IMG/VR virus record: IMGVR_UViG_3300025137_000018
Span: 1-64,000 of that record
Reading direction: 5' to 3' (one strand)
Length of the DNA stretch: 64,000 bases
DNA from: a virus
Part shown: one piece after another, positions 6,001 to 49,560 of the stretch
Layout: the number at the start of each line of letters is the position of its first letter
Position numbering within the stretch: the first letter of the stretch is position 1
Made by a program: the position numbers and the translations under genes
Notes under the pieces: generated by a model
Databases searched by the model: none
The model's input: the letters and a program-made list of their open reading frames with translations, nothing else
Told to the model about the DNA's origin: nothing

Positions 6001-7679
6001 CTGGCTCATATTTAGGTGGTCATTATTCTTCTGGAGGAACTGAAAAACCAAATTCATCAACCTTTGGGTCTGGTAAACTTAAAACCGCTATGCTTGGCTC
6101 AGGAAATCTTGGGTTTGGAGGATCATGGAATGATGTTCTTTGGATGTCAAGTTACAATGGAGGTGATGTTAAAAAATCAACCGCCATAGTATCGAGTAAA
6201 TATAATGATGCTGATATGTGGGTTGTAAAACAGAATTATGATTCTTCTTCTTGGGGAACTGGCTATAAAATTTGGAACGCAGGTAGTGATGGATCTGGCT
6301 CAGGACTTGATGCAGACGTACTTGATGGTGTTCAAGCTGCATCATTTGTAAGAAGTGATAATAATGATACCCTTTCAGAACAGTACACATTTACTAAAGT
6401 CAATGACCACGCAATAAGAGTGGGAACGATTCGCGGAACTGTTGTTGGCAGTAATAGCGGTGAATACATACAAATGTATGAGCGAGTTCATATTGGCTCT
6501 CCTGCTGGTTGGGGTTCAAGAGGTGCGCCTAGTTACGGATTATCCACTTATGGTGGAGCAAATTTAGCTACAGATACAGGTAGCGTAACAATATCAGGTA
6601 GTACTGCTTGGCATGCAGGAAATGACGGTTCAGGTTCTGGTTTAGATGCTGATTTACTTGATGGAGGACAGAGCACCGACTATGCTAGAAAGGGTAATGT
6701 TGGGTATCAACAAGCTAGTGATCTTTTTACATTCCCTTCATTTAACGATGGCAACTCTTCCTCAGGAGATCAATCATCAGTACAAATTTATAACGGCAAT
6801 GCTCAAGAAGATGCTTTTATAGCTTTTCATATAAGTGGAGATTACGCAGGTTACTTTGGACTAGATGGAACTACAAATGACTTATTCTGGGGTGGCTGGT
6901 CTGTAGGAAATAATAAACATAAAATTTGGCATGCAGGCAACGACGGTTCAGGTTCAGGTCTTGATGCTGACTTACTCGATGGTATGACTTCTGGCGCTAG
7001 TGGTAGTAGTATTATAATGAGAACTGAATCCAATGGATATTCACAATTAAATAACTGGCAACAAGTTGGTGACGCTGGTTTATATTCAGCAACTACAAAC
7101 GGCGCACATTGGTATCCTAACACTGCTGTTGCTTACGGCGTTTGGCGAAGTAATGGTTCTAGAGGTGGTTATTCCGGAATATACCATAATAATGGCGGCG
7201 TTGTTAGCGGTATGTATGATTCAGGAGGTAATGGTGGTGACTGGAATGGTACAAATGGTTGGCAATGGTACTGGCATAGAAGTAATTCTTGCTTAGCTGT
7301 TGCAGGGTCTACTACTTCCTCTAGTTATGCACTTTACGCAGGAGGAGCAATATACGCGACTGGAAATATAACTGCATATTCTGATAGAAGAATTAAAGAA
7401 AATATCGTTCAAATAGATAATGCTTTAGAAAAAGTAAATAAGCTAGAAGGCGTGTATTATAACAGAATTGACGATGAAAGTAAAACAAAAGAAATTGGTT
7501 TTATCGCTCAAGACGTAAATAAAGTTGCACCTGAGTTGGTAACTTATGCAGAAGACGTTGATCAATACGGAGTCAAGTATGGAAATACTACTGCATTACT
7601 AGTAGAGGCAGTAAAAGAATTAACACAACAAGTAAAAGACTTGAAACAAGAAATAGAGGAAATAAAAAATGTCAAGTAA
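3..7679 (+). CDS. Giant long tail fibre/adhesin, 5'-truncated by the window, with C-terminal intramolecular chaperone (peptidase S74-like)
   Basis: Frame is open from position 3 (VSTTSVYPQTDNAVDLGFNSSAHRFKNLYLSG...) through the 201 ATG. G/S/N-rich repeats. C-terminal YSDRRIKENI...EIGFIAQDV...LVEAVKELTQQV coiled coil is typical of S74 chaperones. Lies directly upstream of the neck genes. Confidence 0.85.
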   Translation, partial: VSTTSVYPQTDNAVDLGFNSSAHRFKNLYLSGTISSGAITSTGAVKAYGNSDTVAALEIYSNSTHGMRILHRGTDGDFSFERRVAGTNTEFLRIGRGNGNATFAGTISSGAITSSGNIAITAGSGQRYIEMGSGTSGAKTYRIYNGIAWNPDALLIYNHTDDSTVLTIEPGKLGINKGASSLSHTLDVGGNVAISGTEIISSARNLTNIGTISSGSITSSGDGFFNGTKLVGDSKHMISFADTWLRLNPDNHFTSGIYAGTGLLRTDGHFQVGASGAKFSVNGITGNVTVAGTISSTGQHYVGSNVVWNAGNDGSGSGLDADVLDGQEGSYYLNYNNLSNKPTITTLSNGANNRIVTATGTSSLDAEANLQYDGSALDIYTGSIAVTDNHAGLTFRQTGVYADGRYEHRFRKRDEGGGIPLYIDKTDSTANAHTAIARFGSYTGNTDEFEVYGKAKVADLHIHSGTGGTNTQGLLFTLTDNADAQAYIKKSAYYMHYNSNQNEGHHFTYSGTQSLLRLHGGNNVTRPHSVDITADNGLYMNNTQVMTQARALTNVTTATAAGGTNTTALANTAFVQQEITSLVGGAPTALDTLNELAAAINDDSNYNTTLTTALGTKLPKAGGTITGNLTVNNNLYIGDGNDGYFYNDVNGRTAFRSGDFYIQDTVSNFYNYATNQYYGDSSGDNIHFRGNVLDGTGWQINGAGMLTTRDHLLNAGYHLQRADHHSGHLEGSYNNVGANESKSNPIYTIGSSYNPNSTTLGNMYGVGFSYSNASFINFSGGAGWGMYVAADGDARVWLNGSAGTIASTGQHYVGSNVVWNAGNDGSGSGLDADLLDGVQGANYARLDQSNVFGAGTHSNYFRRNNTSNYTDAPLLVESYGGSSTTTGVGFHISGSVGRYLFMNNSGNLFWNSTASQIWHTSNDGSGSGLDADLLDGVDSTKYFKSPGNVSAWERNNANFSVQGGDASNVGLHMEQSNGVFGFQLYSASGTYGFLDGEWANWDIQKVASGTFKVDEGSGLQRVWNAGNDGSGSGLDADLLDGQDSSYYRNAGNINAGILPIARIPTSLMRATGTEYTSATNWSSGIFPLTSDNVLNWSTVHNSTSSWGDSPQATFSSAYTYGGVENVKLGSMQIQTYYPHSGSAGNGVYYRTGWESSGSSPYFYSWAKFYDTNNDGSGSGLDADLLDGVQGSSFLRSDATDTATGSISLRGGGNHLGNHEFAASSTGTAYSSAAIELRESNYTGTGSATPPQIGFHWGGVVASNISMDSAGAILIRNNPGTAYENFRANNIYANGTNLVWHVGNDGAGSGLDADLLDGVQLSGIARLNYDNTNEIRATNFKANAGGVYYAYTAAGNLRGYMYATDTNDEHLVLRTSGGEDIAFKDDTTNNMIVRGDGNVWIRGAIVNGTIPYSQVTGTPTIPTNNNQLTNGAGYITTSGNAATSHAVTGSAFATTGSPSSVLEYQQASGQTDTRLAPSGDWHNTIRMGHGNPYNYYSNTIAARMTGTGPGDLYTQSIYNNAAGGWRKLWSTGNDGSGSGLDADLLDGIHAASFLRSDAADTAGSKITFSTGLARSDHHVGHLEGSYNNVGGNGSKSNPIYTIGSAYNPTATALSDMYGIGYSHPNFWGSGKTSDWGLYVANNGAVDATIGNGTTTAWFKTNVIVGGTITSQGNLVWNAGNDGSGSGLDADLLDGVDSTSFLRSDVYDTGVGLALNGGTSNHPHDSTLYVTASNSADWGITIAANSGKTEYGMQIQMPSSFNYALRILKNGSEHFNVNSTGATISGNYIWHAGNDGSGSGLDADLLDGQHGSYYALAGGNDELRAIPNRWYANANAVQTLDYYQHNYAKAHMGNTYKYTTSRPAITSDSNYWVGSMGWGQVDLNTILSYGSGFWDSWGTPANRPSTYTTHWTGLNSMHYSASSTYHHGMQMAMGAGDPSHTYLRGWWANGGSGNAWQKIWTSGNDGSGSTLDADLLDGQQGSYYAQASLSNNKTYTNSANTAGSYLGGHYSSGGTEKPNSSTFGSGKLKTAMLGSGNLGFGGSWNDVLWMSSYNGGDVKKSTAIVSSKYNDADMWVVKQNYDSSSWGTGYKIWNAGSDGSGSGLDADVLDGVQAASFVRSDNNDTLSEQYTFTKVNDHAIRVGTIRGTVVGSNSGEYIQMYERVHIGSPAGWGSRGAPSYGLSTYGGANLATDTGSVTISGSTAWHAGNDGSGSGLDADLLDGGQSTDYARKGNVGYQQASDLFTFPSFNDGNSSSGDQSSVQIYNGNAQEDAFIAFHISGDYAGYFGLDGTTNDLFWGGWSVGNNKHKIWHAGNDGSGSGLDADLLDGMTSGASGSSIIMRTESNGYSQLNNWQQVGDAGLYSATTNGAHWYPNTAVAYGVWRSNGSRGGYSGIYHNNGGVVSGMYDSGGNGGDWNGTNGWQWYWHRSNSCLAVAGSTTSSSYALYAGGAIYATGNITAYSDRRIKENIVQIDNALEKVNKLEGVYYNRIDDESKTKEIGFIAQDVNKVAPELVTYAEDVDQYGVKYGNTTALLVEAVKELTQQVKDLKQEIEEIKNVK
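924..6983 (+). repeat. 13 dispersed in-frame copies of a ~57 nt linker encoding WxxGNDGSGSGLDADLLDG
   Basis: Copies begin at 924, 2457, 2754, 3069, 3507, 3897, 4584, 5025, 5364, 5874, 6273, 6609 and 6927, all in the tail fibre frame. Confidence 0.95.
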
Positions 7680-35365: not shown

Positions 35366-35394
35366 TGTACATATGCAGTAAAGTATGGTATAAT
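35366..35394 (+). promoter_or_regulatory. Promoter TGTACA-N14-TGGTATAAT (gp43)
   Basis: Repeated promoter family. Confidence 0.85.
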
Positions 35395-37986: not shown

Positions 37987-38283
37987 ATGAAAGATGAATA
38001 TAAATTAGTACGACTATCTTCTGGTGAAGAAGTGGTCGGTAAAGTTACACAAAATGAAGAATCAATTACCATTACAGATGGTTATTCTTTGATTCCAGCA
38101 GGTGAAGGTAAAATTGGCTTCATGCCATTTATGGCTTATACAAAAGCAGCAGAAGGTATTACTATTCCAAATAGTTTTATTCTATTTACTGTTGATCCAA
38201 TAGATGAACTAGTAGATCAAGTTAAAGCTATGAGCAGTCCAATTCAAGTGCCAGAAAAGCAAGGAATTATTACAAATGTCTAA
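37987..38283 (+). CDS. Conserved hypothetical protein (Sm-like)
   Basis: LVRLSSGEEVVG motif. Confidence 0.7.
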   Translation: MKDEYKLVRLSSGEEVVGKVTQNEESITITDGYSLIPAGEGKIGFMPFMAYTKAAEGITIPNSFILFTVDPIDELVDQVKAMSSPIQVPEKQGIITNV

Positions 38284-38677
38284 GAATTGGGTAGAAGATA
38301 TTCATTTAATGCAAAGCAAATATCTTACTAGACAATGGGTTGAAAATAATCCTGAGAAACTAAAAAAGTTTCTTGAGTTTAGAGTTGAGTTTTTAAAAGA
38401 AGAACTAATGGAAACAAAAGCTGCGGTTACTAATAATGATCCAGAAGAAATAGTAGATGGTTTAATTGATCTATGTGTTGTTGCTATTGGTACACTTGAT
38501 GCATTTGGTGTTAATCCCTATAAAGCTTGGGATGCTGTACTAGAAGCTAATATGAACAAAGAAGTAGGACAAAAGCCAACTAGGCCAAATCCACTAGGAG
38601 TTCCAGACCTAATTAAACCTGAAGGTTGGACCGCTCCATCACACGCAGAGAATCATGGTAAGTTTAACGATATTTAA
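38276..38677 (+). CDS. MazG/PRA-PH-like nucleoside triphosphate pyrophosphohydrolase
   Basis: EELME...EEIVDGLIDL, V.EANM.K, DLIKPEGW.AP. Confidence 0.82.
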   Translation: MSKNWVEDIHLMQSKYLTRQWVENNPEKLKKFLEFRVEFLKEELMETKAAVTNNDPEEIVDGLIDLCVVAIGTLDAFGVNPYKAWDAVLEANMNKEVGQKPTRPNPLGVPDLIKPEGWTAPSHAENHGKFNDI

Positions 38678-39572
38678 CAGTATATACGATAACAAAACTG
38701 ATAAAAGCATTACATATAAATCATTTGATGATTTTGAAAAAATATTGTATCAGTTATCGGAAAGTACTAAATATCCAACTAAAAAATCAGCACCATTAAT
38801 ATCTCCAGCAACTTATGTACCGGAGACAACTCGTGCAAACGATAATGTTCTTAGTTGGGGTGGTTTTGGAATCGTAGATGTAGATGATTATATTGGAAGT
38901 ATCGATGATATTTCTGAGGTGTATAGCGAATACAAATACGTATGTTATTCCACTGCTAGCTCGACTGAAGAACACCCTAAGTTTCGTTTAGTATTTCCAC
39001 TAACAAGAGCTATAAATAAAGATGAAATCAAACATTTTTGGTACGCATTAAATAAAGAGATAGGAGATATCGCAGATGCCCAAACAAAAGACCTCAGCAG
39101 AATGTATTACGTCCCAGCCAAATATAAAGGATCTTACAATTTCATATTCTCACACGATGGATCTACCATGGACCCCGCAAAACTTATGGAAAAACACAGA
39201 TACGTCGTACCAAATGAATCGTTTTTCGATAAGTTACCAGAAGCTATTAAAAAAGGTCTTATACAACATCGACAAGCAAAACTCGATAACACTAACTTTT
39301 CATGGACAGGATATCAAGACTGCCCTTTTATAAACAAAAAACAAATTGAAGAATACAAAACTTTATCAGGTGCTGGCTGGTATTACAAACTATATCAGAT
39401 AATGGTTTCAATAGCAGGTAATGCAATGTCTAAGGGTTATCCAATAACATCTAAAGAAATTGAATATATCATTAGAGATCTCGATGCAAACACTGGAAAT
39501 TGGTACGCAAAAAGACCAATTAATAAAGAAGCTGAAAGAGCTATTGAATTTATTTTTAAAAACAATATATAG
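38655..39572 (+). CDS. Archaeo-eukaryotic primase (prim-pol)-like protein
   Basis: hhDxD (IVDVDD), YSTASS..HPKFRLVFPL, D..TKDLSRMYYVP; helical C-terminal domain. Confidence 0.7.
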   Translation: MVSLTIFNSIYDNKTDKSITYKSFDDFEKILYQLSESTKYPTKKSAPLISPATYVPETTRANDNVLSWGGFGIVDVDDYIGSIDDISEVYSEYKYVCYSTASSTEEHPKFRLVFPLTRAINKDEIKHFWYALNKEIGDIADAQTKDLSRMYYVPAKYKGSYNFIFSHDGSTMDPAKLMEKHRYVVPNESFFDKLPEAIKKGLIQHRQAKLDNTNFSWTGYQDCPFINKKQIEEYKTLSGAGWYYKLYQIMVSIAGNAMSKGYPITSKEIEYIIRDLDANTGNWYAKRPINKEAERAIEFIFKNNI

Positions 39573-39581
39573 GAGTATATT

Positions 39582-40142
39582 ATGGAACAACTTTTTCACA
39601 AACACATTATTAAAATAACAGGTATTATTTGTTTACCTTTATTACTAGCTTTCTTTTTTTCAAAAGTTCAAGCCGAAGATCATAACTATACATGGCATGG
39701 TCATACTATGGAATTAAACCCAGAATTACAAGATTCACAATACTGTTTGGCCAAGAACATTTATTTTGAAGCTGGTAATCAACCAGTTGCTGGTAAAATT
39801 GCAGTCGCACAAGTAGTTCAGAATAGAGTTATAAACAAAAATTATCCAAATAATATTTGTGATGTTGTATATCAAGCAAAATTAAAAGAAAATTGGAAAG
39901 GTAATCTTATTCCAGTTAGGCATATGTGCCAGTTCAGTTGGTTCTGTGACGGTAAATCAGATGATCCAGTTGATAGTGCAACTTGGATGTTTTCTTTATT
40001 AGTTGCTGATTCCGTTATGAATGGAGAGTATGGCGATATTACCGAAGGGGCAACTCACTACCATGCAGACTCAGTATATCCTTATTGGGCTGAGTCTTTA
40101 AATCAAACAGTTATAATCAACAATCACACGTTTTATAAATAG
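39582..40142 (+). CDS. SleB-like cell wall hydrolase with N-terminal TM/signal
   Basis: CLAKNIYFEA, AVAQVVQNRV, CQFSW.CDG, GATHYHA. Confidence 0.92.
   Translation: MEQLFHKHIIKITGIICLPLLLAFFFSKVQAEDHNYTWHGHTMELNPELQDSQYCLAKNIYFEAGNQPVAGKIAVAQVVQNRVINKNYPNNICDVVYQAKLKENWKGNLIPVRHMCQFSWFCDGKSDDPVDSATWMFSLLVADSVMNGEYGDITEGATHYHADSVYPYWAESLNQTVIINNHTFYK
40134..40141 (+). promoter_or_regulatory. Late promoter TATAAATA (GroES)
   Basis: Consensus directly upstream of the co-chaperonin. Confidence 0.65.
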
Positions 40143-40159
40143 ATAATAGGAGAATAATT

Positions 40160-40411
40160 ATGAAAATGATTGGAACAAACGTCTTAGTAACAGAGACAGC
40201 AAAGGAAGATACTACTGCAGGTGGTATCATTTTAACAGCAGATACGACCAAAGGGTCTAAACCCGCACTAGTACTTTTAGTAGGACCAGATGTAGTTGAT
40301 GTAGCCAAAGGAGATAGAGTATATCTTGATTGGCCAAATGCTATGCCAGTAGATATAGAAGGAAAGGCCGGTGCAATAATCGATATGGAACATATCAAGG
40401 CAGTAGTATAA
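40160..40411 (+). CDS. groES: GroES-like co-chaperonin
   Basis: Mobile loop TTAGGIILT, VGPDV..V.KGD.V. Confidence 0.85.
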   Translation: MKMIGTNVLVTETAKEDTTAGGIILTADTTKGSKPALVLLVGPDVVDVAKGDRVYLDWPNAMPVDIEGKAGAIIDMEHIKAVV

Positions 40412-40833
40412 TGTATACTTATAACGTAACAGTAACAAGAATAGTAGATGGAGATACAGTCGACGTAGATGTCGATTTAGGCTTCGGAATGGTTTATAAA
40501 AAGCAAAGAGTAAGAATGCTAGGTATTGATACACCTGAATCTAGAACTAGAAATCTAGAAGAAAAGTATTACGGTAAACAATCAAAGTATTTCTTAGAAA
40601 GTTTATTAAAGGATGCTGATGTAAGATTAGTATCACATGATAAAGGAAAATTTGGTAGAATTCTAGGTGAACTATTTATTTATGGAAACATGGATAAATC
40701 TGTAAATCAGATAATGATTGATAACTATCATGCAGTACCATACTTTGGTCAATCCAAAGATGATACTGAACAAGGACACTTGTGGAATAAGCAAGCTCTA
40801 AATGAACAAGGTATTATATATCAACCAAAATAA
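40411..40833 (+). CDS. Thermonuclease (SNase-like)
   Basis: RIVDGDTVD, RVRMLGIDTPES, GKFGRILG; true start likely 40411. Confidence 0.9.
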   Translation: MYTYNVTVTRIVDGDTVDVDVDLGFGMVYKKQRVRMLGIDTPESRTRNLEEKYYGKQSKYFLESLLKDADVRLVSHDKGKFGRILGELFIYGNMDKSVNQIMIDNYHAVPYFGQSKDDTEQGHLWNKQALNEQGIIYQPK

Positions 40834-40845
40834 TCAAAAAAAGTG

Positions 40846-40874
40846 TGTACAATTGAATAAAACTATGGTATAAT
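40846..40874 (+). promoter_or_regulatory. Promoter TGTACA-N14-TGGTATAAT heading the DNA-modification cluster
   Basis: Repeated promoter family. Confidence 0.85.
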
Positions 40875-40900
40875 AGTACTATAAACAGAAAGGTTATATT

Positions 40901-41239
40901 ATGAAAGAATCACTAAAAGTATTACAAGAATGTGCCGAACTTCAGGCCAAGAAAAGTAATGACTATCAAAATCCAAACTCCAGGATTAAACAAGCAGATT
41001 ATTACCCTCGCGGTGTAGCTTCAATCCTGGATATTATCCATGCTAAAACACTCAGAATGTTCTCAGTACTAGAAGCTATGGAATCAGATCCCAATTACAA
41101 CCCTAACTTTGAATCACTAGAAGACTCTGGTAAAGATTTAATTAACTATGCTTCGTTTATGGTTGCATATATGAGAGGTGGAATCGACGGCCAATCAGAA
41201 AACAATGACTTTTTAAATAGGAACAAAAATGAATCTTGA
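40901..41239 (+). CDS. Nucleotide-modification-associated helical protein (DUF1599/Nmad-like)
   Basis: KKSNDY...K..R...ESLEDS..DLINYA pattern; adjacent to the hydroxymethylase. Confidence 0.65.
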   Translation: MKESLKVLQECAELQAKKSNDYQNPNSRIKQADYYPRGVASILDIIHAKTLRMFSVLEAMESDPNYNPNFESLEDSGKDLINYASFMVAYMRGGIDGQSENNDFLNRNKNES

Positions 41240-41894
41240 AATAGATCAATTAAGAACTTACTTTAGTAACGAACTTCGTAATGAAAGATTTACGGTGGAC
41301 AGAAATGGTAGTAAAACAATTGAACTAATTGGTGCTTCGTTTTATGCTGATGAACCAGCTATATATGGTGTTCCAAACAAAGCTTATATTGATGCAGAAC
41401 TAAATTGGTACAACAGCCAATCTACAAACATTAATGATATCTATTTAGATAGCGATAAAGAACCACCAGCAGCATGGAAGATGACTGCTAACGAACACGG
41501 TGAGATTAATTCAAATTATGGTCATTTAATTTATTCTGATAAGTATGGTGCACAGTTTGATATGGCACTAACTGAATTGTTACAAAATCCAGATTCACGT
41601 AGAGCATCAATGATCTATACACGACCAAGTATATGGTGTGAATATAATGAAAATGGTAAAAACGACTTTATATGTACAAACTCTGTTACATACTATATCC
41701 GTGAAGGTAAACTAAATTGTGTAGTACAAATGCGATCTAATGATGTTATCTTTGGTTATCGTAATGATTATGCATGGCAAAAAGCAGTACTTGATGATAT
41801 GGCAGGAATGCTAACAATATCTCCAGGCGAAATCGTTTGGCAAGTACAAAACTTACATGTATACGAAAGACATTTTGATTTGGTAAATGCATGA
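41229..41894 (+). CDS. gp42: dCMP hydroxymethylase (T4 gp42-like, thymidylate synthase fold)
   Basis: INSNYG, SRRASMIYTRPS, DFICTN, MRSNDVIFGYRNDYAWQ, NLHVYERHF closely match T4 gp42, including the dCMP-specifying Asp. Confidence 0.9.
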   Translation: MNLEIDQLRTYFSNELRNERFTVDRNGSKTIELIGASFYADEPAIYGVPNKAYIDAELNWYNSQSTNINDIYLDSDKEPPAAWKMTANEHGEINSNYGHLIYSDKYGAQFDMALTELLQNPDSRRASMIYTRPSIWCEYNENGKNDFICTNSVTYYIREGKLNCVVQMRSNDVIFGYRNDYAWQKAVLDDMAGMLTISPGEIVWQVQNLHVYERHFDLVNA

Positions 41895-42334
41895 ACAATA
41901 AATGGGACAATAGATACTTAAACCTAGCAAGGGAAGTTTCAACTTGGTCAAAAGATCCAAGTACTCAAGTAGGTGCAGTAGCAATTGGAGAAATGGGGCA
42001 AGTATTAGCACAAGGTTACAATGGATTCCCTAGGGGTGTTAATGATTCTCTTGAAAGATATAACGATAAAGAAGTTAAATACCGATACGTAGTTCATGCA
42101 GAAATGAATTGTATCTATAATGCTACATTTACTGGAGCATCTCTAAACAATGCTACAATGTATGTTTGGGGTTTACCAGTTTGCAATGAATGTGCAAAGG
42201 GTTTAGCTCAAGTTGGAGTTAAGAGAGTAGTATCACCTAAGACGATTGCAGATGTACCAGACAAATGGAAGATATCAGCAATTAACACAGTTGATTTATT
42301 AAAGGAGGTTGGTATAACATATGACTTCATTTAA
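41891..42334 (+). CDS. cd: dCMP deaminase
   Basis: SKDPSTQVGA, GYNGFPRG, HAEMN, PVCNEC. Confidence 0.92.
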   Translation: MNNKWDNRYLNLAREVSTWSKDPSTQVGAVAIGEMGQVLAQGYNGFPRGVNDSLERYNDKEVKYRYVVHAEMNCIYNATFTGASLNNATMYVWGLPVCNECAKGLAQVGVKRVVSPKTIADVPDKWKISAINTVDLLKEVGITYDFI

Positions 42335-42575
42335 TGAACAATTACTGTATAAGAAAAATAGAAATAACTCTAAGTTTAAAGATTATACTAAGGAAGATTT
42401 AGAAAATCGTATCGAAAATTTTCAAAAAGATTTAGCTAGATTACACGTACTTAATGCTCCAGAATCAATAAAACAAAATACACAAAATATGCTTGGAGAG
42501 ATTGTAAAAGAATATAAGCTGAGATATGATAAAGGTGAATTTCAATACACAGGAGAAATCTCAAAAAATGGTTGA
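42321..42575 (+). CDS. Hypothetical protein
   Basis: 84 aa, AGGAGG SD. Confidence 0.65.
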   Translation: MTSFNEQLLYKKNRNNSKFKDYTKEDLENRIENFQKDLARLHVLNAPESIKQNTQNMLGEIVKEYKLRYDKGEFQYTGEISKNG

Positions 42576-42867
42576 TTACACACAAGAAGAATTAGCTAAT
42601 TCTAAAAGAATTTTTAAATCGGCAACACCTAAGTATACTTTAGATTGGTATATTAAATGGGTAGCATCAATTGTGGTTTTAGCTGCAATGTCAATACGAG
42701 GTGTCGAAGGATTTCAAATATGGGACTTAGGTCTTAGTGTCATAGGAATATTTCTATGGTTAATAGTATCGGTTTTATGGAAAGATAGAGCACTCATTTT
42801 ATTAAATGGTGCTGGATTATTTTTATTAATAAAAAACTTAGTAACGCATTTAGTAAACGGAGGATAA
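42568..42867 (+). CDS. Small three-TM membrane protein
   Basis: DWYIKW...W..VS.LWKDRALILLN; likely start 42568. Confidence 0.7.
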   Translation: MVDYTQEELANSKRIFKSATPKYTLDWYIKWVASIVVLAAMSIRGVEGFQIWDLGLSVIGIFLWLIVSVLWKDRALILLNGAGLFLLIKNLVTHLVNGG

Positions 42868-43701
42868 ATGGAACACTTAATTATACCTACATTAGGTAGG
42901 ATGGATAAACAAAGAACTTACGATAACTTACCAGAAAAGTATCAAAAACTGGTAAAATTTATAGTTCAAGATCATGAGTACGCTCCTATGAGAGAGCGAT
43001 ACGGAGATGCTGTAGTAAAACTACCTAAAGAAATTTCTAGGTTATCGCCAACACGACAATGGATATGGGACGAGTTTTATAGCACAAAGCACATGGTCTT
43101 AGACGATGACTTTGAGTACTTTAAATATAAAGGCCCAGCACCTGAAGGTATGGACACTAAATGGGAAACCAAGGATATGACAGAAGAAGAGTTTGATGAT
43201 GCTTTTGCCACATTCGACAAATGGATAAAAGAAGAAAAAATTTATCATGGCGGATTCTCAACATCTTGGGTTGTACCAGATCTAAAGTATTGGCCACATC
43301 AAAATAACGTAAGGATTATGACCAACTGTTATTTTGATTCTAAAAATTTACCAAGAAATCTTATATGGGATAGGTTAGAAACTTCTCAAGATTTTGATGC
43401 TAATCTTCAATTGCTTACTCAAGGGTTTGCAAATAGGATTACCACGAGGTATCGTGTTAGCGTAACAGCAACTAACACAGCAGGTGGTTGTTCAAATTAT
43501 AGAACAATTGAATTAAGTAATAAAGTGCATCAGCAATTAGCTGAAATTTATCCAGATTATGTTGCTCTAAAAAGCAAGGTATTGGCTAACGGACCATGGA
43601 AAGGACAAGACAGAATTACTTGTCATATTAGCTGGTCAAAAGCTTATAAAGATGCAATTAAAAAACAACAAGAATCAAGTTTGGAGACATTTTTCGGATG
43701 A
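42868..43701 (+). CDS. GT-A glycosyltransferase (GREB1/TET-associated-like), candidate hmC sugar transferase
   Basis: IIPTLGR, MVLDDD (DxD), SQDFDANLQLL..G, GGCS; C-terminal SLETFFG. Confidence 0.75.
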   Translation: MEHLIIPTLGRMDKQRTYDNLPEKYQKLVKFIVQDHEYAPMRERYGDAVVKLPKEISRLSPTRQWIWDEFYSTKHMVLDDDFEYFKYKGPAPEGMDTKWETKDMTEEEFDDAFATFDKWIKEEKIYHGGFSTSWVVPDLKYWPHQNNVRIMTNCYFDSKNLPRNLIWDRLETSQDFDANLQLLTQGFANRITTRYRVSVTATNTAGGCSNYRTIELSNKVHQQLAEIYPDYVALKSKVLANGPWKGQDRITCHISWSKAYKDAIKKQQESSLETFFG

Positions 43702-44906
43702 AACACGCAGGTATAGTACCACTAATTGGTGGTGAAATTTTGGCATCAGCAGATGCTTATGGAACAGACCCAGAATATTTAATGACATATTCTGGATTTA
43801 TGGCTAATGAAACACACCTTTTAAATTATTATAAGGAACAAGGAAAGGATATTCCGTATCATGTTTTAGATGAAACGTCCGAAAAAATGAAGAATGTGGA
43901 CATTGTTTCCTCAGTTTGTCCATGTGCTGGATTAAGTACTTATCATAACTCACACGGTGAACAGAACGAAAACAATCAGTGGATGGAAAAATCATCTGAA
44001 TATGTTTTAAAGGAAGTTAAACCAAAGGTATTATGGGGAGAGAACGCACCAGGATTATCTGGAAAGATTGGTAAATTTATGAGAGAAAAGCTCTATAAGA
44101 TCGGCCAAGATAATGGATATAACTTTTCAATTTATTTAACTAAAAGTTTACAGCATGGTAATCCACAGTACCGTAAAAGAACATTCTTTTTCTTTTGGAA
44201 AAAAGATGAATTTAACGATAGGATTCCATTATTTAATTATTATAATAAAGAAAGACCTATGATTCAAGATCTAATTAAAGGCGTTGATACTAACTTTCAA
44301 ACACAGGTATTAAATACTAAAACACCTTCGCAGGATGATCCATATTATAAGTACACCTTAGAAGTTGAATCTAAATGTACTCATGCTGAATTTGTTGAAA
44401 GACATTCACACGAGGAAAAATCTATTAATGTAGAATCTAGGTTAATGAAACTTGGTCATGATCATCTTAAACTTGCTGAATGGATGGATCAATATCCTCA
44501 ATTTGAAAGAGAAGCTGCAAAGGCTAGACGTAAAGCTGGAAAGATTGCATCAGGCGGTGGAATCATGCTTAGAGGTACAATTATTCCAATTAATTACATT
44601 GGTGCATTCGTTGTACATTTACCTAAAGTTATTGCACACCCAACAGAAGATAGATACTTAAATGTTGCTGAAGGGAAAGCTATTATGGGATTACCTTTGG
44701 ATATGGAAGTGCTAGATGTTGAAAAGAATTATAATCATATTTGCCAAAACGTTCCATTTGCTACAGCAAGGGATATGGCAGTAGAGGTTAAATCAGTATT
44801 AGAAGGTAAAAGAGATAGTGTTGAAACTACCTACTTATTCCAAAATAATTTAAACAGAAGTTATGATTATAAAAGAGAAGAAAATAGTTTAGAGGCGTTC
44901 TTATGA
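43698..44906 (+). CDS. Atypical C5 cytosine methyltransferase-fold protein
   Basis: Motif IV PCAGLS, motif VI ENAP, motif VIII Q.RKRTFF; motif I degenerate (PLIGG); C-terminal SLEAFL. Confidence 0.75.
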   Translation: MKHAGIVPLIGGEILASADAYGTDPEYLMTYSGFMANETHLLNYYKEQGKDIPYHVLDETSEKMKNVDIVSSVCPCAGLSTYHNSHGEQNENNQWMEKSSEYVLKEVKPKVLWGENAPGLSGKIGKFMREKLYKIGQDNGYNFSIYLTKSLQHGNPQYRKRTFFFFWKKDEFNDRIPLFNYYNKERPMIQDLIKGVDTNFQTQVLNTKTPSQDDPYYKYTLEVESKCTHAEFVERHSHEEKSINVESRLMKLGHDHLKLAEWMDQYPQFEREAAKARRKAGKIASGGGIMLRGTIIPINYIGAFVVHLPKVIAHPTEDRYLNVAEGKAIMGLPLDMEVLDVEKNYNHICQNVPFATARDMAVEVKSVLEGKRDSVETTYLFQNNLNRSYDYKREENSLEAFL

Positions 44907-45679
44907 AAATCTTATTAACAGGAAGCAAAAGCGGGCCAAGAAAAGGTTTTATTGCAAGTAGATTTGCTAAGAAATTTAAAGATGAATATGATATTGTAGA
45001 GTACACTGCAGACATTAGAAATGCAGAAGGTATCATTGTAAGTGATTTTGATTTAGTAATACATCTTGCAGCACTAGCTGGTGTTAGAAGATCTCACGAA
45101 ATTCCTCAAGAATATTGGAAAACAAATGTAACTGCATCTAAATATATTTTTGAAGCTTGTGAAAAAGCTAATGTTCCAATCATATATGCTTCATCATCTA
45201 GTGTTTACGAATGGTGGTTATCTCCTTATGCTTCTACTAAGTATGCTATGGAGGCTATAGCACCTAAGAACTCTATTGGATTAAGATTCCATACGGTATA
45301 CGGTCCTAACAGCAGGCCAGATATGTTATACGATGCACTTTTAAGAAAAGATCCTAAGTTAACTTATTTAACTAATCACACAAGAGATTGGACTCATGTA
45401 GATGATGTATGTAATGCTATAGATATTTGCATAACATATTTTGATCGTATAGTTCATCATAAAGCAATTGATGTTGGTAATGGTAAACCTGTTACAGTAA
45501 AAGAAATGGCTGATAAAGTTTGGCCAGAGAATAATTTACCACTAAAAGAAGTTACTGGTGAACGACAAGATACATGTGCTGATCCATCAATTTTAACTAA
45601 ATACGGTTGGGTTGCTAATCACCATGTATTAGAAGAAACAACAAAACAATTAGAATTAAACTCGGAAGGTATTATATAA
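44903..45679 (+). CDS. NAD-dependent epimerase, UDP-glucuronate 4-epimerase-like
   Basis: HLAALAGVRRS, ASSSSVY, YASTK, LRFHTVYGP..RPDM, RDWTHVDD. Confidence 0.85.
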   Translation: MKILLTGSKSGPRKGFIASRFAKKFKDEYDIVEYTADIRNAEGIIVSDFDLVIHLAALAGVRRSHEIPQEYWKTNVTASKYIFEACEKANVPIIYASSSSVYEWWLSPYASTKYAMEAIAPKNSIGLRFHTVYGPNSRPDMLYDALLRKDPKLTYLTNHTRDWTHVDDVCNAIDICITYFDRIVHHKAIDVGNGKPVTVKEMADKVWPENNLPLKEVTGERQDTCADPSILTKYGWVANHHVLEETTKQLELNSEGII

Positions 45680-46533
45680 TGAAATTAGCAATTATAGGAC
45701 ATGGCTTTGTAGGTAAAGCAGTTGATTATGGATTTAGTAATCAGTTAGTAAAAAAGAAAATTATAGATCCAAACTATGGCCATAATAATAACGATCAACG
45801 CAAATTAAAAGATTGGAAACCTGATGTAATTTTTGTGTGTGTTCCTACACCTATGGGCAACGATGGTAATATCAATAGTAGTATTTTAAAATCTGTAATG
45901 GATAATCTTGATGAATGTGTAAAAGAAACATTAATTGTAATTAAATCAACTGTTACACCAGATGTAATAAGTAACTATAAATATTGGAATAACGTAGTAT
46001 ATAATCCAGAGTTTTTAACAGAAAAATCAGCATGTGAACAATTTGTAAATCCTGAGTTTCATATCTTTGGTGGTGAGTCATATAATACTGAAAAGTTAGA
46101 AGAATATTATGAAAAATATAGTTTATGTACTCCATGCCCATCTTATCATATGAACCATGAAGAAGCTTCTTTGGTTAAATACTCAATCAATTCATTCCTA
46201 GCAACTAAGATTACGTTTTTTAATCAACTCTACGATCTGTGCAGAATTAACGGCAATGTTAATTTCAATACTATTATTAAAGCAGTTGGTGCTGATAATA
46301 GAATTGCACCATCGCATACTAAAGTTCCAGGATTTGATGGAAAGCAAGGATACGGCGGTGCATGTTTTCCTAAAGATACTTTGGCTTTTGCAAAATTCAG
46401 CAATGAACTTTCTCTCTTAGCTAAAGCAATTGAGATAAACAATGATTATAGATCTCAATACGAAAGAGACGAAAGAGAAAAAGAACAAAATATTCAATTT
46501 AACCATGTACATTCAACCAAAAGTATGGTATAA
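45679..46533 (+). CDS. UDP-glucose 6-dehydrogenase-like, lacking the C-terminal domain
   Basis: [30 protein letters not shown]. Confidence 0.9.
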
Positions 46534-46534
46534 T
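46506..46534 (+). promoter_or_regulatory. Promoter TGTACA-N14-TGGTATAAT (bS21-uvsX-gp41)
   Basis: Repeated promoter family, embedded in the 3' end of the dehydrogenase gene. Confidence 0.82.
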
Positions 46535-46559
46535 AACTATATTATTAATAAGGAGAAAT

Positions 46560-46817
46560 ATGCCAAGCGTAGATTTAAGACCTCGTAAGAGGCACCCAAA
46601 AGACAAAAGACCATCAACCGAAATGCCATTCGATGTTGCTCTTAGAAAATTTAGAAAAGCAGTTGAAAGAGCTGGAACTCTTCAGGATATAAGACGAAAA
46701 GAGTTTTATGAAAAGCCAACTGCTAAAAAGAAAAGGAAAAAAGCAGAAGCCTTAGCCAGATGGCGTAAAAAAGAACGCTCCATGCAATTAAGACCAGAAC
46801 GTGGTCGAGGAAAATAA
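46560..46817 (+). CDS. rpsU: Phage-encoded ribosomal protein bS21
   Basis: [18 protein letters not shown]...[14 protein letters not shown]; AAGGAG SD. Confidence 0.92.
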
Positions 46818-46819
46818 TA

Positions 46820-47887
46820 ATGGGAATAATGGATAAACTTAAAAAGAACTCTAGAATTAAAGGTACTGATATTCTAGAAAAGTCAATATACTTTGGTGAA
46901 AAGGATATAGTTACAACAAGTGTACCAATGATAAACGTCGCACTTTCAGGAGATGTCGATGGTGGTTTATCATCTGGTCTAACAGTTTTAGCAGGTCCAA
47001 GTAAACATTTTAAAACCTCGTTTGCATTACTAATGGCTGGAGCATATATGAAAGAACATGACGATGCTGTTATGTTGTTTTATGATTCAGAATTTGGTTC
47101 ACCACAATCTTACTTTGAGTCCTTTGGAATTGATATTTCAAGGGTATTACACACACCAATCACAGACGTAGAACAACTAAAGTTTGATTTAGTTAATCAA
47201 TTAGATACGATTGAAAGAGACGATAAGGTTATTGTCGTAATCGATTCTATTGGTAACTTAGCTTCTAAGAAAGAATTAGAAGATGCATTAAACGAAAAAT
47301 CAGTTGCTGACATGTCAAGAGCTAAAGCACTAAAGGGATTGTTTAGAATGGTCACTCCTTATCTGACTATGAAGAACATCCCTTTACTTGCTGTTAATCA
47401 TACATACCAAGAAATTGGATTGTTTCCTAAAGCAGTTGTATCAGGTGGTACTGGAATTTACTATTCAGCTGATAACATTTGGATTATTGGTAGAAGGCAG
47501 AACAAGAAAGGATCCGAAGTTAAAGGATATGATTTTGTTGTTAATGTTGAGAAATCAAGGTTTGTAAAAGAAAAATCTAAGATTCCAATTAGTGTAACAT
47601 GGGAAGGTGGTATTTCAGAATACAGTGGCCTACTTGATGTAGCACTAGCTGGAAATTATGTTGCTAAACCAAGTAATGGTTGGTACTGTAGAGTTGATCA
47701 AGAAACCGGTGAACTGCTAGAACCAAAGGTAAGAGAAAAAGATACTCTTGATCAAAAATTTTGGAATCCAATTTTTGAAGGAACCGATTTTAAGAAATTT
47801 ATTAAAGGTCATTACCAAATTGGCCAGAAGCCATTAATTGCAATGGACGAAGATTTCACTGTACTTTCAGAGGAAGATGATGTATAA
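46820..47887 (+). CDS. uvsX: Recombinase UvsX
   Basis: AGPSKHFKT, FYDSEFG, DSIGNLASKKE, SGGTG.YYSAD. Confidence 0.97.
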   Translation: MGIMDKLKKNSRIKGTDILEKSIYFGEKDIVTTSVPMINVALSGDVDGGLSSGLTVLAGPSKHFKTSFALLMAGAYMKEHDDAVMLFYDSEFGSPQSYFESFGIDISRVLHTPITDVEQLKFDLVNQLDTIERDDKVIVVIDSIGNLASKKELEDALNEKSVADMSRAKALKGLFRMVTPYLTMKNIPLLAVNHTYQEIGLFPKAVVSGGTGIYYSADNIWIIGRRQNKKGSEVKGYDFVVNVEKSRFVKEKSKIPISVTWEGGISEYSGLLDVALAGNYVAKPSNGWYCRVDQETGELLEPKVREKDTLDQKFWNPIFEGTDFKKFIKGHYQIGQKPLIAMDEDFTVLSEEDDV

Positions 47888-48221
47888 TATATCAGATAGC
47901 GATTTTACACTAGTAGAAAATCCTGAATCAGATTTCTACGGTGTAAAGCTTTTAACCGGAAAGTACAAAGACGTTACAGTTGTTTACGGAAAGGTTTCAA
48001 TAAAAGAAAATGAAGAACTTGATATTGGAACCTTAGAGTTTACTTGGACATGCATTGATCCAGCTGAATTTAATAATAAAGAACTTAATAAGAATGAAGA
48101 GTTTAACAATCATTTAGGCGACGTACTTCAATATATTATATCTGATTCATTGGAAAAAAAGAAGGGACAAATTGGACATATCAACACAAATACCAACACA
48201 CGTACTAAATCATCTACTTAA
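47877..48221 (+). CDS. gp40: Head vertex assembly chaperone gp40-like
   Basis: Position between uvsX and gp41; G.YKDV.V.YGKV.I motif. Confidence 0.65.
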   Translation: MMYNISDSDFTLVENPESDFYGVKLLTGKYKDVTVVYGKVSIKENEELDIGTLEFTWTCIDPAEFNNKELNKNEEFNNHLGDVLQYIISDSLEKKKGQIGHINTNTNTRTKSST

Positions 48222-49560
48222 TGATGAGTTATTCTGCCGTAGGGTAATACCATTTTTAAAGAAGGAATATTTTGAAGGCGAACACCGAGTAGTATTTGAT
48301 CTTATAGTAGATTTTGTAAGTAATCATAATAAATTACCTACAAGTAAAATATTAGAAATTGAATTAACTGGTGTACAAGCACCAGATGATTTACTCAATA
48401 GATCATCACACTTAATCACAGAAATTAAAGAAAGATCTGACATTGAAACAGAATGGCTAATTAAAGAATCAGAAAAGTGGTGTCAAGAAAAAGCAATCTA
48501 TGGTGCAATCATGGATTCCATTCAAATCATCGATGGTAAAAAACCAGAGTTACAAGCAGGTGCAATACCTGATATTTTATCTCAAGCATTAGGCGTATCA
48601 TTCGATCAAGATATCGGTCACGATTATATTGATAATTCAGAAGACCGTTATGAGTTTTACAATAAAGTCGAAGAGCGTATACCATTTGATCTAGGTTACT
48701 TTAACAAAATTACCAAAGGTGGTTTACCAAAGAAAAGTTTAAACATATGCCTTGCTGGTACTGGTGTAGGTAAATCACTCTTTATGTGTCATTGCTCAGC
48801 AGCTAATATTTCTGAAGGAAAGAACGTATTGTACATTACAATGGAAATGGCTGAAGAAAGAATTGCTGAAAGGGTCGATGCTAATTTAATGAATTTTCCA
48901 ATAGAACAATTGGATACTTTACCACAGAATGTATTTAATCAAAAGATTGAAAAGATTGCAAAGGGACACATTGGTAAATTAATCGTAAAAGAATATCCTA
49001 CAGGTGCAGCACATGTTGGCCATTTTAGAGCATTGTTAAACGAATTAAAGCTTAAAAAGAACTTCCGTCCCGATATAATCTATATTGATTATTTGAATAT
49101 TTGTGCCTCTTCTCGTATGAAAGGCCTTGGTGGAAACATAAATACTTATTCATACATTAAAGCAATCGCTGAAGAGCTGAGAGGTTTAGCAGTAGAGTTT
49201 AATGTACCAATCGTGAGTGCGACTCAAACCACGAGATCTGGCTTCAGTAATACTGATGTTGGATTAGAAGATACTTCGGAATCATTCGGTCTACCAGCAA
49301 CGGCTGATTTAATGTTTGCGTTAATATCAACAGAGGAGCTTGAAGAGTTAGGACAAATACTCGTTAAGCAATTGAAAAATCGTTATAATGATCCAACAAA
49401 GTATAAACGCTTTGTTATTGGGGTCGATAGATCTCGTATGAAACTTTATGACGTAGAGGAGGAAGCACAAACTGATATTATGTCAGATATGGTTCCTGAT
49501 AAACCAATAAACAAATTCGGGGAATCTGAAGGCAAAGATTTTTCAGAGTTTAAAATATAG
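48172..49560 (+). CDS. gp41: Replicative helicase gp41
   Basis: AGTGVGKSL, YITMEMAEE, IDYLNIC, SATQTTR, SESFGLPATAD, KQLKNRY. Confidence 0.97.
   Translation: MDISTQIPTHVLNHLLNDELFCRRVIPFLKKEYFEGEHRVVFDLIVDFVSNHNKLPTSKILEIELTGVQAPDDLLNRSSHLITEIKERSDIETEWLIKESEKWCQEKAIYGAIMDSIQIIDGKKPELQAGAIPDILSQALGVSFDQDIGHDYIDNSEDRYEFYNKVEERIPFDLGYFNKITKGGLPKKSLNICLAGTGVGKSLFMCHCSAANISEGKNVLYITMEMAEERIAERVDANLMNFPIEQLDTLPQNVFNQKIEKIAKGHIGKLIVKEYPTGAAHVGHFRALLNELKLKKNFRPDIIYIDYLNICASSRMKGLGGNINTYSYIKAIAEELRGLAVEFNVPIVSATQTTRSGFSNTDVGLEDTSESFGLPATADLMFALISTEELEELGQILVKQLKNRYNDPTKYKRFVIGVDRSRMKLYDVEEEAQTDIMSDMVPDKPINKFGESEGKDFSEFKI

Follow-up and report, generated by a model that had tools for sequence, protein, structure and literature searches.

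A candidate gp42-based pathway for hexuronic acid glycosylation of hydroxymethylcytosine in an uncultured T4-like phage

The window analysed here comprises the first 64 kb of the 126-kb virus record IMGVR_UViG_3300025137_000018, which is about 70% complete, and contains a cluster of nine genes whose products include a T4-type dCMP hydroxymethylase (gp42), a TAGT-family glycosyltransferase (GT), a C5-cytosine DNA methyltransferase (C5-MTase) homologue, a shortened short-chain dehydrogenase/reductase (SDR) and a short form of UDP-glucose dehydrogenase (UGDH). In the interpretation that we rate at somewhat better than an even chance, this operon would replace cytosine with 5-hydroxymethylcytosine (hmC) and then add, by means of the TAGT enzyme, a hexuronic acid made by the phage itself. 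Taken as a whole, the pathway is a plausible, context-supported and unproven gp42-based variant of a known one, with its own supply of sugar donor. A role in DNA is favoured because the sugar genes share one promoter unit with gp42, the cluster occupies the slot of the T4 beta-gt gene, the TAGT, SDR and UGDH genes travel together among relatives, and a second family of DNA GTs or a TET oxygenase is found in the adjoining slot.

The nine open reading frames (ORFs) lie on the same strand between 40901 and 46533, with gaps or overlaps of 0-50 nt. At the head of the operon stands a promoter motif, TGTACA-N14-TGGTATAAT (40846..40874, + strand; 10/12 matches, extended -10), and the next copy (46506..46534, + strand), placed within the last codons at the 3' end of the UGDH gene, heads the S21-uvsX-gp41 unit and sets the 3' limit of the operon; the UGDH stop codon is 27 nt from the next gene. 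This motif occurs 11 times in the window versus 0.01 expected, so that the site at 40846 is more than an accidental resemblance to a sigma-70 promoter; 10 of the 11 copies are on the + strand and each is ahead of a gene block, those at 35366 (DNA polymerase), 37938, 40846, 46506 and 49912 among them. All copies fall within 23381-63937, the first 23 kb having none. No copy was found between 40875 and 46505, nor any terminator-like site in 38000-48500, and since the cluster holds no internal motif, a single promoter heads the whole tightly packed run, just as the initial annotation had claimed. The cluster is therefore one promoter-delimited unit of the same promoter class as the replication genes, and its expression is predicted to be early or middle. 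With the order 43 ... 42 - GT - uvsX - 41, it lies between gene 42 and uvsX, where T4 has its beta-gt gene.

The hydroxymethylase (41229..41894, + strand) is a member of the thymidylate synthase family (PF00303, 67.7 bits versus a cut-off of 24.3) that matches the T4 dCH chain 1b49 with an E of 4e-70 and shares 51% identity with T4 gp42 over 226 aa, versus 31% over 121 aa with gp48 of RB69, a 5-hydroxy-dCMP synthase. The same picture holds for this protein together with eight relatives, at 49-54% identity to T4 gp42 versus 24-31% to RB69 gp48. Such a comparison matters because 5-hydroxy-dCMP synthases share the diagnostic residues of the hydroxymethylases. According to a 2026 paper (PMC13326640), an Asp in place of ThyA N177 confers cytosine specificity and an acidic residue replaces ThyA L143, and RB69-type homologues with these same substitutions make 5-hydroxy-dCMP. 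The protein of the window keeps the catalytic Cys and has Asp at both positions (NDFICT and YRNDYAWQ in the alignment with T4 gp42). Altogether, the comparison points to a T4-type hydroxymethylase and not to the hydroxylase type of RB69. This part of the initial annotation stands, and so does the dCMP deaminase proposed for the next gene (41891..42334, + strand; PF00383, E 1.3e-18; dCMP deaminase PHROG, E 4e-41).

The candidate hmC hexuronosyltransferase is encoded at 42868..43701 (+ strand). It belongs to the TAGT family of GT-A enzymes (PF20691, 65.9 bits versus a cut-off of 27.5; phrog_842, E 2e-35), shows only 22-28% identity to any GT of cultured phages and gave no PDB sequence match at E<=1. 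No homologue of the T4 alpha-gt or beta-gt was found in the record either. The original description of a GT-A enzyme unlike those of T4 is thus confirmed. Residues R11, D79-D81 and Q174-D175-F176 are invariant in the six sequences aligned (6/6) and, apart from a Q where the motif has E, fit the R...DDD...EDY/F signature that a preprint (bioRxiv 10.1101/2023.12.21.572611) gives for phage GT-A enzymes acting on DNA. A search for Tet_JBP gave no match in the 126-kb record, nor was any TET match obtained in the TAGT-bearing contigs examined. The hydroxymethyl group would thus come here from gp42, and not from a TET/JBP oxygenase, the partner expected for TAGT enzymes.

The shortened SDR (258 aa; 44903..45679, + strand) is related to UDP-glucuronate 4-epimerases, its best PDB matches being MoeE5 6kv9 (5e-18), 5u4q and 6zl6, the last of which we take to be the Bacillus cereus enzyme. 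It keeps the SSSSVY, YxxxK (Y109xxxK113) and TVYGPxxRPDM motifs, and both T131 (the Thr of FTVYGP) and R138 (the Arg of RPDM) are invariant in 9/9 phage SDRs aligned. A Glu after the Ser triad is a mark of decarboxylases and dehydratases; in this SDR no such Glu is present and the residue after the catalytic Ser is another Ser. MoeE5 is cited as a UDP-glucuronate 4-epimerase in PMC12338863, which also describes how Arg185 of the B. cereus epimerase holds the carboxylate of UDP-galacturonic acid (UDP-GalA), how Thr and Ser residues do the same for UDP-glucuronic acid (UDP-GlcA), as well as how mutating this endpoint stabilisation of the carboxylate turns the epimerase into a decarboxylase. In our alignment, the numbering of 6zl6 places Arg185 in RPDM. 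The phage protein falls some 60 aa short of its full-length relatives, the extended SDR architecture having ~310-340 aa. It lacks ~29 aa between the first strands of the N-terminal domain and ~13 aa after the Ser triad, a substrate-side loop being among the losses; its GxxGxxG motif has an insertion (TGSKSGPRKGFIAS), and no NCBIfam equivalog scored up to its cut-off. The label of UDP-glucuronate-4-epimerase-like SDR in the initial annotation is thus in line with the best solved relatives, but the shortening had been missed. In sister clades, the same slot holds a full-length SDR (314 aa), which in L017 gives E values of 1e-78, 9e-45 and 3e-33 to the 6kv9/5u4q/6zl6 epimerase entries, versus 3e-22 to solved UDP-GlcA decarboxylases, and such closeness to a sugar-nucleotide epimerase argues for a soluble UDP-uronate.

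The last gene of the operon (45679..46533, + strand) encodes a UGDH-family dehydrogenase of 284 aa made of the NAD and central domains only (PF03721, 57.1 bits; PF00984, 65.9 bits), the C-terminal UDP-binding domain (PF03720) being absent. The match to TIGR03026 covers profile positions 77-298 of 413 and scores 139 bits, below the cut-off of 189.8. The catalytic GGACFPKD and NPEFLxE motifs are invariant in 14/14 sequences, and an AlphaFold2 model (pLDDT 83) gave in Foldseek top matches that are all UGDHs, with TM scores of 0.7-0.78 when normalised to the query and 0.45-0.57 when normalised to the target; the model thus matches over some 0.75 of its length, but over just half of that of the solved UGDHs. 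Since the best 120 of its 6170 homologues at E<=1e-5 are all 211-294 aa long and show the same two domains, the short form is not a truncation artefact. We have filed the protein as a short form of the UGDH family and not as a proven UGDH, because the UDP-binding domain is absent and the TIGR03026 score stays below its cut-off. The claim of a UDP-glucose dehydrogenase is therefore sustained as regards both domains and the catalytic residues, but it had overlooked the missing domain. A large uncharacterised family that has dispensed with the domain thought to hold UDP poses, moreover, a clear enzymological question.

A check through gene neighbourhoods, already advanced in the initial annotation, was done on 100 distinct viral contigs gathered around relatives of the TAGT and UGDH genes, each family scan being the best 80 loci (of ~540 for UGDH and ~580 for the C5-MTase), which favours close relatives. 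The TAGT gene was present in 32 contigs, and where at least 3 kb are available downstream, SDR and UGDH both follow in 25/26 and an MTase in 23/26, so that the expected co-occurrence was indeed found; the sole exception with no SDR and UGDH carries the most distant TAGT, at 38% identity. Looking upstream, gp42 occurs in 27 of the 29 TAGT contigs with at least 2.5 kb on that side, the other two having a flank of only 3.3 kb. The gene order varies from TAGT-C5MT-SDR-UGDH in the window to TAGT-SDR-UGDH-C5MT in L017-L020, where the SDR-UGDH pair is sandwiched by the TAGT and C5-MTase genes, and to TAGT-SDR-UGDH in L115 and L116, which have no MTase there. A further clade has, instead of the TAGT, a PF11440 protein of the T4 alpha-GT family (415 aa, E 3e-32) directly upstream of SDR-UGDH-C5MT and downstream of gp42 and the deaminase gene (cd). 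A Tet_JBP oxygenase, a GNAT protein and a P-loop kinase 3 adjoin UGDH-SDR in L089. Because gp42, TET and DNA-GT modules recur there, the region from the DNA polymerase to uvsX can be regarded as a base-hypermodification island, as in T4 and RB69, and nucleotide-sugar tailoring genes are regular residents of it.

Phage C48C1 carries SDR and UGDH before uvsX with no TAGT, gp42 or thymidylate synthase family gene. It was considered as a counter-example and discarded, as it encodes a Tet_JBP protein, followed by a protein of the u374 family and then by a UDP-galactopyranose mutase. The u374 family is also found between cd and the SDR or MTase gene in gp42 cassettes. Its comparison with the PF11440-like family by hhalign gave nothing (probability 0.1), and the Atlas returned only a GT-B family, on 12% of the members of a single cluster at rank 27. 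For other neighbouring ORFs, the PHROG and Pfam scans gave mostly unknowns. Other observations were made in sister clades, where radical SAM proteins are encoded between the gp42 and GT genes (L017:4437-6383 and L096:5218-7067), one of them of 648 aa with a B12-binding domain, and two small ones at or just below the Pfam cut-off. In L062 (12436-13332) and L075 (13574-14518), a PLP-dependent protein with a threonine-dehydratase-like PHROG is placed between gp42 and the SDR, together with several unknown proteins of 300-390 aa, and this clade may make a different hmC adduct.

The C5-MTase homologue (43698..44906, + strand) matches PF00145 with 67.2 bits versus a cut-off of 22, which supports the C5-MTase fold initially assigned. 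Its PC, ENA, QxRxR and QNVP motifs are invariant in 8/8 sequences, and we take the corresponding motif names to be IV (PC), VI (ENV), VIII (QxRxR) and X. Motif I is unusual, reading (I/V)PL(I/V)GG throughout the family (here PLIGG) versus the canonical SAM-binding FxGxG; the Pfam match begins only at residue 56, and the TIGR00675 score (43.5) is below the cut-off of 100.65. A scan of the family with METHYLTRANSFERASE (the C5-MTase), again read as the best 80 of ~580 loci, found no TET in any of those 80. Where at least 5 kb are available upstream, gp42 is present in 45/47 loci and the deaminase in 43/47. The genes between cd and the C5-MTase in these 47 loci are a TAGT in 11, a PF11440-like gene in 9, u374 in 13, u347/u318 in 12 and none recognised in 2, and the UGDH occurs within such cassettes only with the TAGT (11/11). 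With gp42 so constant and the variable module so different, we conclude that the C5-MTase constantly accompanies pre-replicative hmC synthesis, irrespective of how the base is decorated, and is not a relic of MT-TET-GT cassettes. The pairing is puzzling, since methylation at C5 is impossible in hmC; the simplest guess, of low confidence, is that the enzyme methylates cytosines that escaped replacement. A widespread cassette related to this family (L133-L202) reads MazG - orf112 or MazZ - gp42 - cd - variable module - C5MT - orf315, with at least four alternative variable modules, one of which, made of an SDR, the u374 family and a UDP-galactopyranose mutase, suggests galactofuranosyl DNA.

Under the pathway that we favour, gp42 would convert dCMP to 5-hydroxymethyl-dCMP, so that hmC would enter the DNA at replication, with the deaminase and one or both of the small NTP-pyrophosphatase-like proteins described below probably adjusting the pyrimidine pool. 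The short UGDH, whose family is clear, would oxidise a nucleotide-glucose, most simply UDP-glucose, to the uronate, and the SDR, in view of its family and of its carboxylate-holding residues, may epimerise UDP-GlcA to UDP-GalA. The TAGT enzyme would then transfer the hexuronic acid to the hydroxyl of hmC in DNA to give hexuronosyl-hmC, as judged by the gene context and by published GT-A/epimerase pairs. The resulting base, bulky and acidic, would be expected to stop restriction enzymes and CRISPR nucleases, and the C5-MTase would have, with the low confidence already noted, its task on the remaining cytosines.

The logic of uronic-acid glycosylation of hmC, as first proposed, is thus backed by comparative genomics and by residue checks, but several points weigh against it. 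The donor of a TAGT enzyme is unreadable from its sequence, and T-even members of its PHROG add glucose. The UGDH has lost its UDP-binding domain, and we know of no such short form that has been characterised. This form is, moreover, as widespread as its 6170 homologues indicate, and when UGDH contigs flanked by at least 6 kb on either side are considered (26), no hydroxymethylase, GT or SDR is present within 6-10 kb in four and only the SDR in three; 19 of the same 26 hold gp42 or TET. Both the substrate of the UGDH and its tie to DNA are inferred, because the UDP-binding domain is absent and the gene can occur with no hydroxymethylase or GT nearby. Most of the UGDH-only loci have a small cytidylyltransferase-like gene directly upstream of UGDH (~145 aa, PF01467; L039, L063, L070, L094, L099 and others), and the genome of this phage contains a copy away from the cluster (G000 73251-73697, L105:9251-9697); in SDR-less phages, such a neighbour may supply or replace the missing nucleotide-binding function. 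The contig counts cannot be taken as independent events, because many contigs are closely related. The scheme of the initial annotation leaves the C5-MTase unexplained. Finally, a gp1-type dNMP kinase, a thymidylate kinase and a clear gp56 dCTPase were not found in the 126-kb record, absences that prove little because the record is only ~70% complete.

Considerably less probable than the hexuronosyl pathway, but the strongest of its competitors, is the idea that UGDH and SDR are genes for a glycan of the host surface or the virion (lipopolysaccharide (LPS), capsule or O-chain) that just happen to lie beside the hmC genes, with the TAGT using an ordinary host donor such as UDP-glucose or UDP-GlcNAc. 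In this regard, the UDP-glucose 6-dehydrogenase, rfaE and GTs of pelagimyophages have been read as O-chain genes in the study describing them (PMC7029224), the short UGDH is found next to uvsX in the four of 26 contigs just mentioned, where gp42, TET and GT are all missing within 6-10 kb, and it is often paired with the cytidylyltransferase-like gene, of which this genome has its copy elsewhere. However, UGDH and SDR are here in one promoter unit with gp42 and the TAGT, under a motif that is used by replication genes, and in L017-L020 the SDR-UGDH pair is inserted between the TAGT and the C5-MTase. Two unrelated families of DNA GTs as well as a TET island occupy the adjoining slot, and the strict association of UGDH with the TAGT in C5-MTase cassettes (11/11) also speaks against a glycan gene.

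Somewhat less probable again is a tailoring of the sugar after its transfer or on a non-UDP carrier, so that the TAGT would add glucose and UGDH and SDR would oxidise and epimerise the DNA-bound sugar, or would act on an NDP-sugar made by the cytidylyltransferase-like protein. The loss of the UDP-binding domain in the query and in all 120 homologues listed, with every catalytic residue kept, is what such a substrate would lead one to expect, and so is the loss in the SDR of ~29 aa of the N-terminal domain and of the substrate-side loop; the carrier version has in its favour the cytidylyltransferase-like gene directly upstream of UGDH in most UGDH-only loci. Tailoring on DNA has, to our knowledge, no precedent, which counts against it, as does the full-length SDR of sister clades with its E of 1e-78 to a solved sugar-nucleotide epimerase. 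Moreover, the hexuronic-acid-5hmC published in the preprint (10.1101/2023.12.21.572611) needed in Escherichia coli only the GT, with or without the epimerase, and the host pool.

A more unorthodox combination, which we consider improbable, would make the C5-MTase an obligatory gp42 partner performing a shared, hitherto undescribed step on hmC in DNA, for instance an attack of its Cys on C6 that activates the 5-hydroxymethyl group for the variable decorating module, while UGDH and SDR tailor the sugar on DNA, in what would be a glycan-tailoring and not a donor-supply pathway. Least probable is that the SDR is a decarboxylase, with UDP-glucuronate as a mere intermediate and a pentose of the xylose or arabinose type as the final DNA sugar: a UGDH followed by an SDR is also a route to UDP-xylose, and arabinosylated cytosines occur in RB69-type phages according to PMC13326640, but the SDR keeps the carboxylate-holding Arg and Thr, has Ser and not Glu after the catalytic Ser, is represented in full length by a protein much closer to solved epimerases (1e-78) than to decarboxylases (3e-22), and the arabinose of RB69 is made by a different route.

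Regarding the remaining genes of the operon, the first ORF, orf112 (40901..41239, + strand), had been called Nmad-like, a label that rests only on a language-model neighbour and could not be confirmed, neither a Pfam family nor a fold match having been found. This conserved helical protein of 112 aa, upstream of gp42, is a candidate nucleotide pyrophosphatase, as a lead only (PHROG 'hydrolase', E 4e-12). It gave no Pfam family at E<=1, no PDB sequence match below E 0.5 and, with its AlphaFold2 model (pLDDT 73.5), no PDB fold match with E<1, and BLASTP found it dissimilar to the PF18909 protein encoded at this position in L017. The sole hint comes from a language-model neighbour cluster with DUF1599 on 48% of its members. 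Homologues of orf112 are found directly upstream of gp42 in many loci. Between the deaminase and the TAGT lie orf84 (42321..42575, + strand), conserved at 71-86% in the closest relatives only and with no family in the Pfam (E<=1 included) or PHROG scans, and a small DUF6552 membrane protein (42526..42867, + strand; PF20189, E 2.9e-19), also upstream of the TAGT in L001-L015. The preceding transcription unit encodes a MazG/PRA-PH-family NTP pyrophosphatase (38276..38677, + strand; PF01503, E 3.7e-11), a candidate dCTPase whose family co-occurs upstream of gp42 in most related loci, and this protein and orf112 seem to be the only candidates for pool control in the record. In this line, tblastn of T4 gp1, gp56, beta-gt and dam and of the RB69 thymidylate kinase against the 126-kb record gave nothing better than E 0.06, and neither PF02223 nor PF02511 had a match in it.

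In the surroundings of the cluster, orf305 (38655-39572) resembles the N-terminal region of a 'DNA primase' PHROG (E 5e-49), matched no Pfam family and comes after the polymerase in nearly all relatives. The promoter unit just upstream of the cluster (39582-40833) encodes a secreted-looking SleB-type cell wall hydrolase (PF07486), a Cpn10/GroES homologue and a staphylococcal-nuclease-like protein. On the other side, the gene for ribosomal protein S21 (46560-46817; PF01165, E 8e-15) is directly upstream of uvsX and is kept in close relatives. A giant ORF of at least 2558 aa (window 3-7679) is open at the 5' end of the window.

The DNA polymerase encoded in the window shares 53% identity with its counterpart in Phage C48C1 (Kyanoviridae) and ~48% with those of T4-like cyanophages, and the window also encodes UvsX, a gp41-type helicase, Cpn10 and S21, with a G+C content of 32-34% across the cluster region. 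S21 is given as a core gene of pelagimyophages in PMC7029224. Judging by S21, the low G+C and the T4-like core, this uncultured marine T4-like phage is probably a pelagimyophage. At the DNA level, the cluster had no match in the phage collection, cultured phages included. In RNA libraries, two runs of a single seawater metatranscriptome study gave contigs with at least 99% identity over 30/30 and 29/30 bins of 40700-46900, and in another two runs 7 and 10 bins are covered at 95-99% identity; contigs of such libraries may be carried-over DNA and speak for presence only, not for transcription or transcript ends.

If the proposed pathway is correct, an acidic DNA sugar, besides having been made in the laboratory, would exist in nature, in abundant marine phages of the T4 type that probably infect SAR11. 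Auxiliary metabolic genes of 'LPS type', such as UDP-glucose dehydrogenase and rfaE-like genes, would then need to be re-read as DNA-modification genes. Such DNA could also resist the enzymes of library preparation, with a resulting bias in viromics.

In a full-text search of the literature for uronic-acid sugars on phage hmC, the single report of relevance was a preprint by Pyle et al. (10.1101/2023.12.21.572611). There, a phage GT-A (GT57) with its epimerase, or GT91 alone, gave in E. coli a 433-amu cytosine nucleoside with a hexuronic acid, in an expression that included an MT and a TET, and a wider search found GT-A genes beside thymidylate synthase homologues, dCMP deaminase, epimerases and methyltransferases. 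The base itself is therefore not new, which tells against the novelty suggested at first, and only its occurrence in T4-like phages of the gp42 type would be; such contigs may already figure in the extended search of Pyle et al., which looked for GT-A genes adjoining ThyS, an epimerase and a methyltransferase. What appears to be new here is the gp42-based T4-like setting, the phage's own short UGDH and the link of the C5-MTase to gp42. One of the closest known systems is their subclass II (C5-MT, a TET-like 5mYOX, GT-A and a sugar epimerase), which has in common with the present cluster a JGT/TAGT-like GT-A with the R...DDD...(E/Q)D(Y/F) motif beside an epimerase, as well as a C5-MTase, the product of one such pair being hexuronic-acid-5hmC. 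In contrast, hmC would be made here before replication by a T4-type gp42, with no TET in the 126-kb record or in 80 C5-MTase loci. A further difference is the short UGDH encoded by the phage; in the preprint's main text, a UDP-glucose dehydrogenase goes unmentioned.

The gene 42/beta-gt module of T4 shares with the cluster its slot and gene order, a gp42 with 51% identity and the dCMP deaminase; unlike T4, it has a TAGT-family GT-A enzyme in place of the T4 alpha- or beta-GT fold, as well as additional enzymes that make the donor and a C5-MTase, and gp1 and gp56 homologues were not found in the record. RB69 and DLP3, which make arabinosyl-5-hydroxycytosine, are also T4-like, with a thymidylate synthase homologue between pol and uvsX, their own nucleotide-sugar pathway and DNA GTs, but, as the paper (PMC13326640) has it, the RB69 homologue is a flavin-dependent hydroxylase that makes 5hoC, whereas the protein of the window groups with T4 gp42, and their sugar route leads to arabinose instead of a uronate. 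Bacillus phage SP-15 (PMC5977210) likewise has a phage UGDH beside GTs and a glucuronic-acid derivative on its DNA, whereas its base is a thymine derivative (dihydroxypentyluracil) to which the uronate is linked by a phosphodiester. Its UGDH was considered as another short form and ruled out, the gene being full length (1311 nt), with 29% identity over the shared part. Finally, the pelagimyophages (PMC7029224) resemble this phage in being T4-like and marine and in having S21 as core gene, a UDP-glucose 6-dehydrogenase, rfaE-like and GT genes; that study files those genes under host O-chain/LPS, whereas the dehydrogenase described here lies inside islands of hmC, TET and DNA-GT genes.

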